Shown here piece by piece: positions 2,819 through 11,801 of a stretch of 27,795 nt of DNA. The stretch lies in the IMG/VR virus record IMGVR_UViG_2703718828_000002, positions 1 to 27,795 of that record, one strand, 5' to 3'. The position numbers and the translations under genes were made by a program. Source of the DNA: a virus. Its lineage: Duplodnaviria; Heunggongvirae; Uroviricota; Caudoviricetes. The notes under the pieces are model-generated. The model saw only the letters and a list, made by a program, of their open reading frames with translations, made no database searches and was not told the DNA's origin. Numbering within the stretch: position 1 is the first letter of the stretch; each line of letters starts with the position of its first letter.

Positions 2819-4339
2819 TTATTCAGGCTTTAATTTATTGATAATAGAATCTACCATTTTAATGCCTGCCTCATTGACTATGACTGAATTGACTACTCTA
2901 TCAAAATAGTCTTCTATATGGTGGGAAAATAGGAAAGCAGCACTTGATGGTTTTTTGTTCTTTTCAACTGCAGATTGCAAGACTTCATGAGGCGGAATTT
3001 TAAACCTTTTGCATGATGCAATGAGATATTCAAACTCTTCAAATGATAGACAAAAAATATTCTCTGTAGGGATATGATAGTTATGTTTAAACTTGTCATA
3101 TATCTTATTCATCTCATCTTTAGCATAAGTATTAGCTAGGATACTACCATTGCCTAAGAAAAGGTTTTTATATGTAATGCAAATGATATATGAGTTAGCC
3201 CTGAATGGAGCTATTATTCGCTCATTAGAGTATATTTCTCGATTAACTTCGTGAGATTGTTCGATTGCTTTTAATACCGATTTCTTTATTTTTCCTGCAA
3301 TATCCTCAGGGCGTAATGTTACCATGCCTTTTTGGTGTATCTCAACGCCTTTAGCATCAATGAAAATATTTGCCTCAGTATGTGGAATGAAATAATCAAC
3401 TACTTTATTATCTTTAGGTAGTCGTTCTTTAAGGTATTTTTCGTTATGAAAATCAATTTCGCTTTCTTTTAGTATTAATTCCAGTGCATTTTCAAATACA
3501 TTTCCAAAGCTATCCATGAACTTCTCGGCATCAGTTCTTCTTAAAAGATCATATATGAACGTCTGTATGCTTGTTGAAGTCAGTTGTGTGTGTATCTGAA
3601 AATACTCTGAACCTTTTTTTATTAATGGTTTTTCAAGGAAAGGTGATGATGAGTAGTATTCAAGCAAAGGTTTATCATAGGTTTTTGATTTGCAAAATGT
3701 AGATAGTTCATTGTAATTTATTGATATTGCATCAAGAAATTTCTCAATGGTATTTCTAGGAATGATGTCAAATAATATAGTAAATGTATCTACATTCATT
3801 TTTCTCACGGGATGCTCTTCTGTTATGTGAGTTATTAATATGTAAGATAGCTTAAGAAAGTCTTCTATAGATACATTCGTGATAGTAAAAAAACTTGTCT
3901 TTATTTTATGGTTTTTTTCAAGTTCTGAAAATAGAAAGACTTGTCTGCTAATTGTGTTTAGAGCGTCAATTTTCTGGTAGATTCCTTGTTGGTATAGATT
4001 ATTTCTAATGAAGAAATGCATGCCATTCTTCCTCTCAAGACCGATAGGAATAATGTTCAAGGTTTCATAAGTTTTTTGGAAGAGTTTTATTGCTTGATTT
4101 TTATCGAGGATTTTGAATTTTTTATTCTTGCCAGTTACTGACGCAGACCACTTTAGACATAAATTAACAATCCAAGGCATGTGTCGTAACATGTGGATAT
4201 TATCTTCAAATTTTTGTAAGTTATATTGCATACAGAATTCGATAAATAAATCAGGGGAATAACCTTGGATTTCTGAACGAATAGCATCCATTCTTAACTT
4301 TGCAACCGCATCAGATTGAATATCTAATTTTTGAATCAC
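2819..4339 (-). CDS. Hypothetical 506-aa protein; AT-rich cargo gene between the att core and the prophage integrase
   Basis: Long uninterrupted ORF with markedly lower GC than int; GTG start (rc of 4337-4339) with GGAG 9 nt upstream overlapping the int stop; no family recognised by eye. A weak D...DxK pattern (VVDYFIPHTEANIFIDAKG) is the only motif-like element noted. Confidence 0.65.
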   Translation of the reverse strand: MIQKLDIQSDAVAKLRMDAIRSEIQGYSPDLFIEFCMQYNLQKFEDNIHMLRHMPWIVNLCLKWSASVTGKNKKFKILDKNQAIKLFQKTYETLNIIPIGLERKNGMHFFIRNNLYQQGIYQKIDALNTISRQVFLFSELEKNHKIKTSFFTITNVSIEDFLKLSYILITHITEEHPVRKMNVDTFTILFDIIPRNTIEKFLDAISINYNELSTFCKSKTYDKPLLEYYSSSPFLEKPLIKKGSEYFQIHTQLTSTSIQTFIYDLLRRTDAEKFMDSFGNVFENALELILKESEIDFHNEKYLKERLPKDNKVVDYFIPHTEANIFIDAKGVEIHQKGMVTLRPEDIAGKIKKSVLKAIEQSHEVNREIYSNERIIAPFRANSYIICITYKNLFLGNGSILANTYAKDEMNKIYDKFKHNYHIPTENIFCLSFEEFEYLIASCKRFKIPPHEVLQSAVEKNKKPSSAAFLFSHHIEDYFDRVVNSVIVNEAGIKMVDSIINKLKPE

Positions 4340-4351
4340 AATAGGTCTCCA

Positions 4352-5365
4352 CTACAAATTATAAAGAGGATTTTTAGTCACCGCGTCTTCAAGGTGATCG
4401 GGCGAAAAGTGGGCGTAAATCATGGTCATTTTTATATCGGCATGACCCAAAATATCACGCAGTACCAGTATGTTTCCGCCGTTCATCATAAAGTGACTGG
4501 CGAATGTATGGCGAAGCACGTGGGTGCATTGGCCCTCCGGTAGGTCAATACCGGCCCGCTTTACTGCCCGCTCAAAGGCTTTTCTGCATGGCGTGAATAA
4601 CTTTCCTCTGTTTTTGGGGAGTTCATCATACAGATCCTGAGATATCGGCACAGTACGGTTTTTCTTGCCTTTTGTTTTTGTATAAGTAATTCGGTATTTC
4701 GATATTTGATGGCCCTGCAGATTTTCGGCTTCACTCCACCGTGCGCCAGTAGCCAGGCATATTTTTGCAATCATTAGTAAGCTAGGGCTTTGAGATTCAG
4801 CACATGCCGCCAACAGGCGCTTGATTTCGTCCGTGGAAAGAAAAGCCAGCTCACCTTCGGCAATTTTGAAGGTCGGAAGTCCTGCCAGCGGGTTTGGTGC
4901 TGACCAGTGTCCTAGTTTTTTTAATGTACCGAACACAGATGATAGATTGCGCTGTTCAAGGTTTACCGTGCGGGGCTTAACGGGCGACATCAGCGTGCCA
5001 TCTTCATTTCGCACTTCACCTTTTAGCCGTGCTTCGCGGTATTTCGTAAAGTCACCGGCAGTCAGCTCTGAAGCGATGGGATCGCCCAGACCATTACAGA
5101 TAATTCCAAGTTTCGCCATGAGTCGCTTGGGGTCTGCGAGTGTTTGACCATACAGGGAATACCACAGCTCAATTAATTCTGATAGGTGTCGCCGATCTTC
5201 CTTTTCTCCCAGCCAAGGTTTCTTGTTTACCTCGTCCATGGTGAAATTCTCAAACGCAATGGCTTCGCCTTTCGTCGCAAATTGTTTGCGTACGCGTTTG
5301 CCATCTCGCCCGTTTGGGTAGCATTCACATAACCACTTTCCGTTCGGCTGTTTTCTGATGGTCAT
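4352..5365 (-). CDS. int: P2/186-family tyrosine integrase
   Basis: 337-aa translation with C-terminal tyrosine-recombinase signature region (...HVLRHTFASHFMMNGGNILVLRDILGHADIKMTMIYAHF) consistent with R..HxxR..Y catalytic residues; ATG at rc 5363-5365 one nt after the repressor stop. Confidence 0.9.
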   Translation of the reverse strand: MTIRKQPNGKWLCECYPNGRDGKRVRKQFATKGEAIAFENFTMDEVNKKPWLGEKEDRRHLSELIELWYSLYGQTLADPKRLMAKLGIICNGLGDPIASELTAGDFTKYREARLKGEVRNEDGTLMSPVKPRTVNLEQRNLSSVFGTLKKLGHWSAPNPLAGLPTFKIAEGELAFLSTDEIKRLLAACAESQSPSLLMIAKICLATGARWSEAENLQGHQISKYRITYTKTKGKKNRTVPISQDLYDELPKNRGKLFTPCRKAFERAVKRAGIDLPEGQCTHVLRHTFASHFMMNGGNILVLRDILGHADIKMTMIYAHFSPDHLEDAVTKNPLYNL

Positions 5366-5366
5366 A

Positions 5367-5999
5367 TCAAAGGCTCTTAATGATTTTCAGTGCGCGGCCT
5401 ATTACCTCAATGTCATCCAGTTCGCACTCAAACGATGAATCATCCTGATGCACTACTAATCTGTTTCCCGGGAGTCGTGTCAATTTTACAATGCTTTTTA
5501 TCCCGTCGATGTCCACTAACCACGTACCATTTACTGGTGGTGTTTGGTTGCGATCTATTAAATAAGAATCACCAGAAGTAGTCACCAGCAGCAGGTTGCT
5601 TGAGTCTGAGGGGAGTATGCTGCTATCAATGATTGCTTTTCCAGCATCGATCAGCAAACCTCCGTTGAGAGTTGCCTTGTCAATTTCAGGAGATACAAGC
5701 TCCGAAAGAGGTTTAACTTTGCTAGAGTTCACGGAATTGATATTTTTTTTAGGGTCAATGTTTGAACCTGGATCGCCCTGTCCGGTAGTTAGCCACAGTA
5801 AAGAAACTCCTGTTTCCAAAGCGCACTGAATCACCCATTCTGCAGGAAAACTATCTCTTAAGTATCTGTTTGCCATAGTGCTTTTTGATGCGCCCAAGTG
5901 ATCGCAAAGTTGCTGTCTGGACTTGAAATCATAGGCTGCCATTAGCCTATGGATAGCCTCTCTTCCCCCTGTATTCTCGCCAGCTTTTACTTGTATCAT
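5367..5999 (-). CDS. cI: CI-type immunity repressor (phage 186 CI-like)
   Basis: 210-aa protein on the int strand, divergent from the apl/cII operon; motifs CALETG..LLWL.TGQG and LWLVDIDG...LTRLPG...FECELDDI match the 186 CI layout as recalled. Confidence 0.75.
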   Translation of the reverse strand: MIQVKAGENTGGREAIHRLMAAYDFKSRQQLCDHLGASKSTMANRYLRDSFPAEWVIQCALETGVSLLWLTTGQGDPGSNIDPKKNINSVNSSKVKPLSELVSPEIDKATLNGGLLIDAGKAIIDSSILPSDSSNLLLVTTSGDSYLIDRNQTPPVNGTWLVDIDGIKSIVKLTRLPGNRLVVHQDDSSFECELDDIEVIGRALKIIKSL

Positions 6000-6004
6000 T
6001 TTTT

Positions 6005-6065
6005 AATCCTGTTGACGTATCAAATATTGGATCGTAGTATCTTGGTGTATCAAATATTGAATCAA
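6005..6065 (+). promoter_or_regulatory. Immunity switch region: candidate rightward promoter with duplicated operator-like 13-mers
   Basis: TTGACG (6012-6017), 17-nt spacer, TAGTAT (6035-6040); the 13-mer GTATCAAATATTG occurs twice (6017-6029 and 6047-6059) overlapping the promoter; lies between divergent cI and apl. Confidence 0.4.
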
Positions 6066-6118
6066 ATAAAACAAGATAAAACGACGTAAACCAAACCTTA
6101 ATCGAGAGATACTGCACT

Positions 6119-6367
6119 ATGAGCAACGACATTTCAATTCGTGTACCAAAAGTGATGGCGACACCAGCTGAGTTCGCGGAATGGGAAGGCCGCTCTCGCG
6201 GTTCGGTATATCAAATGATTCATAATGGTAAACTCGCTAAATTCTTGGAAAGAAAAGAAAAACCGAAAGACAGAGTATGTATACGTTACCTTGAGTACAA
6301 AAAGGAACAAGTCAGGAAAAACATGGGCCAATCCAATTTCAACTTTAATGTCATCGTTGGTGACTAA
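6119..6367 (+). CDS. apl: Apl/Cox-like small DNA-binding regulator/excisionase
   Basis: 82-aa first gene of the rightward early operon, divergent from cI. Assignment is by position and size in the 186-type layout. Confidence 0.55.
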   Translation: MSNDISIRVPKVMATPAEFAEWEGRSRGSVYQMIHNGKLAKFLERKEKPKDRVCIRYLEYKKEQVRKNMGQSNFNFNVIVGD

Positions 6368-6399
6368 GTTCAATTATGAGAACTTTCTAAGGGGGCAGC

Positions 6400-6909
6400 A
6401 TGTTTGATTACAAGATTTCCAAACATCCGCATTTTGATGAAGCCTGTAGAGCTTTTGCACTACGTCACAATATGGCAAAGCTGGCAGAACGTGCAGGAAT
6501 GAATGTTCAGACACTGCGAAACAAACTCAATCCAGAGCAACCGCATCAGCTCACCGCACCAGAAATCTGGTTGCTTACCGATCTGACTGAAGATTCAACG
6601 TTGGTAGACGGTTTTCTGGCACAGATTCATTGTCTGCCATGTGTTCCGATTAATGAGGTGGCAAAAGAGAAACTGCCGCATTACGTCATGAGTGCAACTG
6701 CAGAGATCGGGCGTGTTGCTGCAGGTGCGGTATCTGGCGATGTAAAAACCAGTGCAGGTCGTCGTGATGCTATCAGCAGCATTAACTCTGTAACACGACT
6801 GATGGCGCTGGCGGCTGTTTCATTGCAGGCCCGTTTACAGGCTAATCCTGCGATGGCAAGTGCAGTTGATACTGTAACTGGCCTCGGTGCGTCATTCGGT
6901 TTGCTGTGA
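6400..6909 (+). CDS. cII: CII-like lysogeny establishment regulator (186 CII-type)
   Basis: 169-aa protein following apl; N-terminal region ...ACRAFALRHNMAKLAERAGMNVQTLRNKLNP has helix-turn-helix character; size and position match 186 CII as recalled. Confidence 0.65.
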   Translation: MFDYKISKHPHFDEACRAFALRHNMAKLAERAGMNVQTLRNKLNPEQPHQLTAPEIWLLTDLTEDSTLVDGFLAQIHCLPCVPINEVAKEKLPHYVMSATAEIGRVAAGAVSGDVKTSAGRRDAISSINSVTRLMALAAVSLQARLQANPAMASAVDTVTGLGASFGLL

Positions 6910-11307: not shown

Positions 11308-11327
11308 TACTGTAAATATAAACAGTG
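11308..11327 (+). promoter_or_regulatory. LexA (SOS) box
   Basis: TACTGTAAATATAAACAGTG contains a perfect CTGT-N8-ACAG with AT-rich spacer (core 11310-11325), about 40 nt upstream of the small ORF at 11369. Confidence 0.6.
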
Positions 11328-11368
11328 GTTATGCATACAGTATTGCGTGTGGTGTCATAGGAGGAAAG

Positions 11369-11557
11369 ATGCAGGACTATTTTTTGGAGTCTTTGAAGCT
11401 CCAGCGCATTGATTTTTTTCTTAAGCTTGTAGCGGCCAGTGAGTGTAGTGATGAAGAGAAGGGGCTGGCTCTGCAGTGGGTTTCTGAATTGACTGATGAA
11501 CTCATGGCAAAAATCAGAACCCACGAATACAACCGCTCAATGGATGTCATCAGTTGA
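11369..11557 (+). CDS. Small hypothetical protein, first gene of the LexA-boxed module
   Basis: ATG 11369 with AGGAGGA RBS (11359-11365); 62 aa; its TGA stop (11555-11557) is embedded in the RBS of the next gene. Confidence 0.5.
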   Translation: MQDYFLESLKLQRIDFFLKLVAASECSDEEKGLALQWVSELTDELMAKIRTHEYNRSMDVIS

Positions 11558-11567
11558 GGTGACTTTT

Positions 11568-11801
11568 ATGCGCATTGAAATAATGATCGATAAAGAGCAG
11601 AAGATTAGCCAGTCTACCCTGGACTCTCTTGAATCCGAGCTTTACCGCAATCTGAGCCCCCTGTATCCCAAAGCGGTAATTCGTATCCGTAAAGGTAGCG
11701 CCAATGGTGTTGAACTGAGCGGGTTAAAACTGGATGAAGACAAAAAGCGAGTGATAGAAATCATGCAGCAGGTCTGGGAGGACGATAGTTGGTTACATTA
11801 G
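11568..11801 (+). CDS. DinI-family protein (SOS-inducible, possible Tum-like antirepressor component)
   Basis: 77 aa MRIEIMIDKEQ...IRIRKGSANGVELSGLKLDEDKKRVIEIMQQVWEDDSWLH aligns by eye with E. coli DinI (MRIEVTIAK...ISEILQETWESADDWF); RBS GAGGTGA 11556-11562. Confidence 0.7.
   Translation: MRIEIMIDKEQKISQSTLDSLESELYRNLSPLYPKAVIRIRKGSANGVELSGLKLDEDKKRVIEIMQQVWEDDSWLH

Follow-up and report, generated by a model that had tools for sequence, protein, structure and literature searches.

Predicted CI operators at the immunity switch of a P2/186-like Klebsiella prophage: two near-identical 17-bp dyads spaced 30 bp apart

Between the divergently oriented genes cI and apl of a P2/186-like prophage, the 13-mer GTATCAAATATTG occurs in two exact copies on the plus strand (6017–6029 and 6047–6059), 30 nt apart from start to start, which raises the question of which protein, if any, is served by this repeat. 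No further copy with zero or one mismatch is present in the window, i.e. the complete analysed stretch of 27.8 kb, and the pair is the sole exact direct repeat of at least 13 nt within 100 nt in this window. A repeat of this kind was found in 20 out of 500 dinucleotide-preserving shuffles of the window and in none of 500 random 131-mers of local composition (31% GC). The similarity between the copies extends to 22 nt, with 19 of 22 positions identical (TTGACGTATCAAATATTGGATC, 6012–6033, versus TTGGTGTATCAAATATTGAATC, 6042–6063). An earlier note on this DNA had placed the two copies over a TTGACG-N17-TAGTAT promoter and proposed that they are CI operator sites; the exact positions and the promoter were recovered here. 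As judged from sequence comparison, the probability is about 80% that both copies represent 17-bp dyad operators (O1 and O2), which are bound by the helix-turn-helix domain of the adjacent 186-family repressor CI.

The prophage is inserted at ssrA, and its attachment site is marked by the 3' end of ssrA together with Int arm-type repeats at 2640–2803. This junction consists of TGGTGGAGCTGGCGGGAGTTGAACCCGCGTCCGAAATTCC, which is the 3' end of ssrA (tmRNA) in reverse complement, and of GCCGCCA Int arm-type repeats behind it; a complete tmRNA was not detected in the window by ARAGORN. Integration at ssrA has been reported for Fels-2 and SopEPhi (PMC3448106). The switch region is identical to that of Klebsiella phage Kp4845-2 and eleven sibling records, shows 80–83% identity to Salmonella phages SEN8 and SopEPhi and to Yersinia phage MLG42, and 73% identity to Fels-2. 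The gene order corresponds to the annotation of phage 186, with int (4352–5365, minus strand) and cI (5367–5999, minus strand) reading leftward and the apl/cox-like gene (6119–6367, plus strand), cII (6400–6909, plus strand; PF06892, E=1.8e-44) and fil (Fil, PF10893) reading rightward, followed by DUF5347, DUF2732, a DksA-type zinc finger gene, dam and replication gene A. In related records, CI, Apl and CII are the usual annotations of the switch genes. The apl/cox-like gene encodes an excisionase-repressor of 82 amino acids, which matches phrog_575 ('Cox-like excisionase and repressor', E=4.5e-24) and phrog_6912 (E=4.5e-32) and has no match in Pfam.

The predominant candidate for a protein acting on the repeats is encoded directly beside them. 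CI comprises 210 amino acids and consists of an N-terminal helix-turn-helix domain, a linker and a C-terminal oligomerisation domain. Both Pfam domains that define the CI family of phage 186 are present (PF07022, E=6e-31; PF16452, E=4.8e-28), and the protein matches the 186 CI structures PDB 2FJR (E=3.4e-25) and 2FKD (E=6.6e-12). Identity to 186 CI is 31%, and an alignment gap indicates a linker that is about 16–18 residues longer, a feature already noted for SopEPhi and Fels-2 (PMC3448106). A peptidase S24 or self-cleavage domain was not found in CI by the Pfam search.

Each copy of the repeat is built around the core TCAAATATTGA, which the earlier note had called near-palindromic. This description is apt: the right copy contains a perfect TCAA-N3-TTGA dyad, and the left copy reads TTGG in its right arm. 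The same note had regarded the sites as directly repeated rather than inverted, a distinction that is not supported, since each copy is itself an inverted repeat and the arrangement is that of two dyads sharing one orientation. Both can be written as 17-bp units of the form GWWTCAA-N3-TTGRWWC. O1 (GTATCAAATATTGGATC, 6017–6033) has its dyad centre at 6025, and O2 (GTATCAAATATTGAATC, 6047–6063) at 6055; the two 17-mers differ at a single base (G6030 versus A6060). The centres of the half-sites are about 10 bp apart, which would fit binding by a helix-turn-helix dimer. An alternative, even-centred dyad (ATCAAAT|ATTGGAT) matches at 12 of 14 positions in O1 but fails in the variants of O2 and in the distal site described below, whereas the odd-centred form suits all of them.

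The shared orientation could also be read in another way, namely that the 13-mers are asymmetric half-sites in direct repeat, as recognised by the C repressors of P2, P2 Hy dis and WPhi, with one unit per repeat and with the direct orientation being essential. In these phages two copies in the same orientation likewise flank the −10 element of the early promoter, the promoters are face to face and the copies lie 22–34 bp apart (spacings of 22, 26 and 34 bp; PMC1904268); moreover, the similarity of the two copies in the window extends asymmetrically over 22 nt. However, the P2-type repressors form a family of proteins of about 100 amino acids, their half-sites are asymmetric and devoid of dyads, and no distal site has been described (PMC1904268). 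The repressor in the window is a 186-type CI of 210 amino acids, each copy contains an internal dyad, the arms of which are kept symmetrically among relatives (TTCAA-ATG-TTGAA at O2 of locus L007), and a third copy within cI shares the dyad core only, without the asymmetric flanks. Binding of this kind is thus very unlikely, and the dyad operators of CI are the preferred reading.

The position of both dyads relative to the promoters is consistent with a function as operators. The early lytic promoter pR (6012–6040, plus strand) was identified by a consensus scan and consists of a −35 element TTGACG (6012–6017), a spacer of 17 nt and a −10 element TAGTAT (6035–6040). The copies flank this −10 element on both sides: O1 fills the spacer, and O2 spans about +1 to +17, with transcription expected from the sequence to start near 6047, where the second copy begins. 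The −35 and −10 positions are conserved in relatives belonging to several immunity groups, and the offset of pR from the cI start equals that of 186 pR. The putative lysogenic promoter pL (6109–6137, minus strand) has a −35 element TTGAAA (6137–6132), a spacer of 17 nt and a −10 element CAGTAT (6114–6109). It scores below the threshold of the consensus scan and was identified by reading of the sequence and by comparison of offsets. These offsets from the apl ATG match the annotated pL of 186, with the −10 element ending 4 nt upstream and the −35 element at +13 to +18, and the pL sequence is conserved across immunity groups. Since pL sits on the minus strand at the offsets of 186 pL, the two predicted promoters are convergent, with their starts about 55 bp apart. 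This value falls into the range of 40–60 bp that is typical for the face-to-face starts of P2-like phages (PMC7498355). The divergent arrangement proposed in the earlier note therefore applies to the genes, cI on the minus and apl on the plus strand, but not to the promoters, as pL faces pR.

In order to follow the motif across relatives, 89 loci were compared in which the N-terminal domain of CI shares 93% identity or more with that of the window; they comprise four phage records, five bacterial genomes and 80 viral contigs. The contigs derive from a search that revealed 446 relatives of the CI protein, 80 of which were retrieved; all 80 belong to this immunity class. O1 is nearly invariant in the 89 loci: 66 carry the sequence of the window, 16 have A for T in the central triplet, and the remainder are singletons or a pair. 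The 24-nt region of O2 displays 18 variants with 11 distinct 17-mers. All of these keep TCAA (occasionally TCCA or CCAA) and TTGA(AT), while the left flank and the central three bases (ATA, TTA, CTT, ATG, TAA or CTA) vary, and at locus L007 O2 has become the perfect palindrome given above. Column entropies follow the same pattern, with conserved arms and a variable centre, and the spacing between O1 and O2 is 30 bp throughout the relatives. Part of this conservation could reflect promoter or mRNA function, as O1 lies inside the promoter and O2 in the 5' leader.

A pattern of conserved arms around a drifting centre bears on the possibility that the repeats are sites of a host factor such as IHF, or simply the product of a promoter duplication to which no dedicated protein binds. 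The IHF consensus is WATCAANNNNTTR, to which TATCAA-N4-TTR shows resemblance, and TATCAAatatTgG differs from the IHF core by one mismatch. The region is AT-rich (31% GC), and the 22-nt similarity includes the −35-like starts TTGAC and TTGGT. However, IHF is the same in all of the hosts, which are Enterobacteriaceae, and heteroimmune relatives nevertheless have unrelated sequences at these positions. Conservation is symmetric in the repeats, whereas the IHF consensus is asymmetric, and in the distal site in cI (GGGTCAA...) both dyad arms are kept but the WA of the IHF core is missing. A functionless copy, in turn, would not hold its arms in 89 loci while the centre drifts. Neither a host factor nor a bare duplication is at all probable as an explanation.

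The occurrence of the motif follows the DNA-binding domain of CI. It is absent where this domain differs, as in Fels-2-like loci (77–81% identity) and at locus L017 (77%). Apl of the window, by contrast, is about 70–74% identical to the Apl proteins of relatives irrespective of whether the motif is present or absent; because Apl is equally diverged in both sets, the motif tracks the CI N-terminal domain and not Apl. Even relatives with a 100% identical CI N-terminal domain possess an Apl that is only about 70–74% identical, and the immunity region is therefore mosaic between cI with its operators on the one side and apl on the other.

This also concerns the proposal that Apl/Cox, the excisionase-repressor encoded by the first gene behind pR, binds to both repeats or at any rate to O2. 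The direct repeats bound by 186 Apl begin shortly behind the −10 element of pR and occupy the interval between pR and pL, which is where O2 is located. Such sites, however, are about 6 bp in size and are spaced at 10–11 bp, not at 30 bp (PMC7498355). In addition to the co-variation with CI, no TCAANNNTTGA is present near the attachment site (about 2640–2810), and a better array exists. Situated between O2/pR and pL are three direct repeats of the form RTAAAMC (6066–6092, plus strand; ATAAAAC, ATAAAAC and GTAAACC), which start at 6066, 6076 and 6086 and thus have a spacing of 10 bp. The region is conserved across immunity groups. Since 186 Apl binds direct repeats 10–11 bp apart between pR and pL (PMC7498355), these three elements are, by analogy, good candidates for Apl sites. 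Assignment of the 13-mers to Apl has very little in its favour, and CI is retained as their likely ligand. Near the attachment site, at about 2740–2765 on the minus strand, A-rich elements (GTAAAAC, CAAACAC and ATAATAC) recur every 10 bp and may be a matching excisionase array.

Comparison with coliphage 186 (Eganvirus) revealed that the proposed operator O1 occupies an established position. Like the mapped central operator of 186, it lies in the spacer of pR, and convergent pR and pL, the CII site and the −10 element of pE are found at the same offsets. The dyad in the pR spacer of 186 (TCTCTCAATTGGGAGA) is located inside the annotated CI-binding region. In other immunity groups, class-specific dyads fill the same spacer, ATCTTGAATCAAGAT in Cartapus and CACTTAAAGTG at locus L017. 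Positional equivalence of O1 with the footprinted central operator of 186 is the strongest single argument for O1 being a CI operator. The operator sequences themselves are unrelated to those of 186. In the latter, the distal sites FL and FR read ATTCAC-N5-GTGAAT (FL: CTTCAC...). 186 CI recognises two distinct operator types.

Within the closer relatives, SopEPhi, SEN8 and MLG42 probably share this immunity class, because their CI N-terminal domains are 99–100% identical to that of the window and the layout of O1, O2 and the FL-like distal site is the same. Fels-2, with an N-terminal domain of 77% identity, has an O2-like site only and a different pR spacer. CIs of the Fels-2 type carry a recognition helix (SKSTMANRYLRD) that is identical to that of the window CI. 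The corresponding loci (L004 and L011–L016) nevertheless contain a single TCAW-N3-TTGA site within +20 to +60 from the cI start, at the position of O2, while their pR spacer reads GTATAKAAAAWGYGATC, unlike that of the window, and an equivalent of FL was not found in them. As the same helix is combined with different sites, specificity must depend on other residues as well, or these repressors recognise two operator types. A literature search yielded neither a mapped operator in the Fels-2/SopEPhi group (Felsduovirus) nor mapped operators or binding data for the immunity class of the window, and a full-text search with the operator sequence retrieved unrelated papers only.

In 186, FL is located about 300 bp from pR. 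A candidate for an equivalent site is found in the window at 5752–5768 (GGGTCAATGTTTGAACC, core TCAATGTTTGA at 5755–5765), inside cI codons 78–83. The core covers codons 79–82 (Ser-Asn-Ile-Asp) in the variable linker, corresponding to the linker codons that harbor the distal operator in 186, and is positioned 265 and 295 bp to the left of O1 and O2, respectively. The 27.8 kb contain two exact matches to TCAANNNTTGA and no more, one in O2 and the other at 5755–5765. With a weight matrix trained solely on variants of O1 and O2, 5752–5768 ranks fourth among about 27,800 positions of the window, and the site is the top match inside cI in all of 48 distinct relatives. At wobble positions, entropy in the arms is 0.25 and 0.0, compared with 1.33 in the centre, which ranks with the most variable sites, and a mean of 0.66 over the cI gene. 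These values have to be weighed against conservation to the same degree at about 30% of all wobble sites and against the phylogenetic relatedness of the sequences. The motif also outlasts changes of the encoded residues: locus L010 encodes E-S-I-I-E and reads TCAATTATTGA, and an exchange of Ser to Pro at the site yields TTGG, the arm found in O1. Each of these lines is modest alone; all taken together, they suggest that the FL-like site is probably a real CI operator. Co-occurrence of the motif with one type of CI N-terminal domain in 89 loci, its absence where the domain differs and this third copy at the place of FL support the original assignment of the repeats to CI.

Further candidates were considered and rejected. 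Two other matches inside cI, at −368 and −566 (7 of 8 positions), are accounted for by amino-acid conservation; some relatives have lost them, and their matrix scores are low. A third operator at pR with a phasing of 21 or 30 bp (centres at about 5995, 6004, 6046, 6085 and 6115) was not found. The segment 5993–6009 offers a left half only, which is set by the Met-Ile-Gln codons of cI, and its right half never reads TTGA in relatives.

On the opposite side of the switch, a palindrome (AGTTCAATTATGAGAACT, 6367–6384) is situated at the apl-cII junction, where 186 has FR and pE. It matches the operator with its left arm only, has a matrix score of 7.6–7.8 and is identical in heteroimmune groups. 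Due to this conservation in all immunity groups it is not linked to CI specificity and is not counted here as a specific CI operator (FR), being at best a weak or half site; it probably represents the −10 element of a CII-dependent pE (CATAAT, minus strand). To the right of pR, no strong operator match above about 8 was detected, with the exception of a G variant of this palindrome in seven loci. In contrast to 186, the window thus has no convincing FR, and recognisable weak sites over pL were not found either. The CII site (6400–6426; ATGTTTG-N13-CAAACAT) is conserved at the start of cII and matches the annotated CII site of 186.

In conclusion, the locus is most likely an ordinary immunity switch of the 186/Fels-2 type in a Klebsiella prophage, with the two 13-mers as the main CI sites. 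CI dimers would bind to O1 in the pR spacer and to O2 at the start site and thereby keep RNA polymerase off pR, silencing apl, cII and the early operon. If the analogy with 186 holds, silencing of pR would relieve transcriptional interference on the weak pL and sustain expression of cI. In 186 this relief has been shown, and 186 CI is known as a cooperative binder of multiple operators with distal FL and FR sites (PMC3675496). Cooperative binding, which the earlier note had deduced from the direct orientation and three-turn spacing of the repeats, is plausible here, yet the orientation is no argument for it. Binding is probably cooperative because the C-terminal domain of CI is the oligomerisation domain of 186, which forms a wheel of seven dimers in that phage. 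Neighbouring dimers of one oligomer might occupy O1 and O2 jointly, since 30 bp correspond to about three helical turns (2.9) and would place both sites roughly on one face of the DNA. The FL-like site (5752–5768) could loop over about 270–300 bp to the same oligomer.

Release of CI may be brought about by a LexA-controlled antirepressor of the Tum type, as in 186, which is predicted here from a LexA box and open reading frames. The module (11310–11801, plus strand) starts with the LexA box CTGTAAATATAAACAG at 11310–11325, the only exact LexA-box match in the window, followed by a 62-aa open reading frame (11369–11557) and a DinI-like open reading frame (11568–11801; DinI PF06183, E=2e-22). 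A split tum has been described for Fels-2 and PSP3 (PMC3121763). The 62-aa/DinI module is likely a split tum-type antirepressor and the inducer of the switch, with the antirepressor role being deduced from position; SOS induction of the antirepressor (11310–11557) would then release CI from its operators.

The elements proposed here also resemble the OR and OL regions of phage lambda, where 17-bp quasi-palindromic operators over the lytic promoter are occupied cooperatively and long-range looping takes place. Lambda CI, however, has a LexA-like, self-cleaving C-terminal domain and its cooperativity is pairwise, whereas the C-terminal domain in the window is PF16452 and induction is predicted to depend on an antirepressor.

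The geometry of the sites differs from that of 186. Three operators of unlike sequence with a spacing of two helical turns are present at 186 pR (PMC3675496), in contrast to two near-identical dyads 30 bp apart in the window. Neither the spacing nor the number of sites agrees with the wheel model of 186, whose register comprises three operators at two-turn intervals. It is conceivable, albeit rather unlikely, that this CI lineage (SopEPhi, SEN8 and the Klebsiella Kp48xx type) uses a wrapping register unlike that of 186 and, in addition, that CI binding or firing of pR is tuned by Dam. If so, two dyads three turns apart and a single FL would be served by the linker, which is 18 residues longer, and the CI-DNA assembly would be wider than the two-turn, 147-bp wheel or differently phased. 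By simple geometric extrapolation, an assembly that takes up 30 bp per dimer would call for a DNA path exceeding the 147-bp wrap modelled for 186 by about 40%, which the longer linker might allow. The methylation state set by Dam, either of the host or encoded in the pR operon, could then modulate how CI binds or how pR fires once the DNA has been replicated.

A GATC sequence, the target of Dam, is located at 6030–6033; it belongs to the right arm of O1 and immediately precedes the −10 element of pR. G6030, the sole difference between the 17-mers of O1 and O2, falls into this GATC. The sequence is kept in 87 of the 89 loci of this class (group A) and is present in all other immunity groups examined (Fels-2-like, L017–L023, Cartapus and PSP3) despite their differing operators, with loci L004, L011–L023, L104 and L105 having GATC at the same position; in 186 no GATC is found at pR. 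A correlation of the pR GATC with a phage-encoded dam gene fails, as the GATC of PSP3 is not accompanied by an annotated dam. Methylation of this site may possibly control pR or O1. Two methyltransferases are encoded in the prophage, a C-5 cytosine enzyme (PF00145; 12035–13075, plus strand) and a Dam-type N6-adenine enzyme (PF02086; 7887–8804, plus strand), and the dam gene sits within the pR operon.

Immunity classes of CI have been little studied (PMC3448106). The arrangement described here does not reveal a new kind of regulation but is a modest geometric twist on a known switch. It provides a predicted operator map (O1, O2, FL, pR and pL) for a widespread P2/186-like immunity class found in Klebsiella, Salmonella (including the SopE-converting phage SopEPhi), Citrobacter, Enterobacter and Yersinia, from which homoimmune prophages can be predicted. 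Moreover, with its two sites at 30 bp, where 186 has three at 21 bp, it is a variant provided by nature on which the tolerance of the 186 CI wheel model towards other operator geometries could be examined.

Located between the attachment site and int is an open reading frame of 506 amino acids (2819–4339, minus strand), which matches phrog_14259 (function unknown), has no match in Pfam or PADLOC and takes a cargo position of P2-like prophages. The third-best match to the operator matrix in the window, TATCTAATTTTTGAATC at 4321–4337, lies at the 5' end of this open reading frame.
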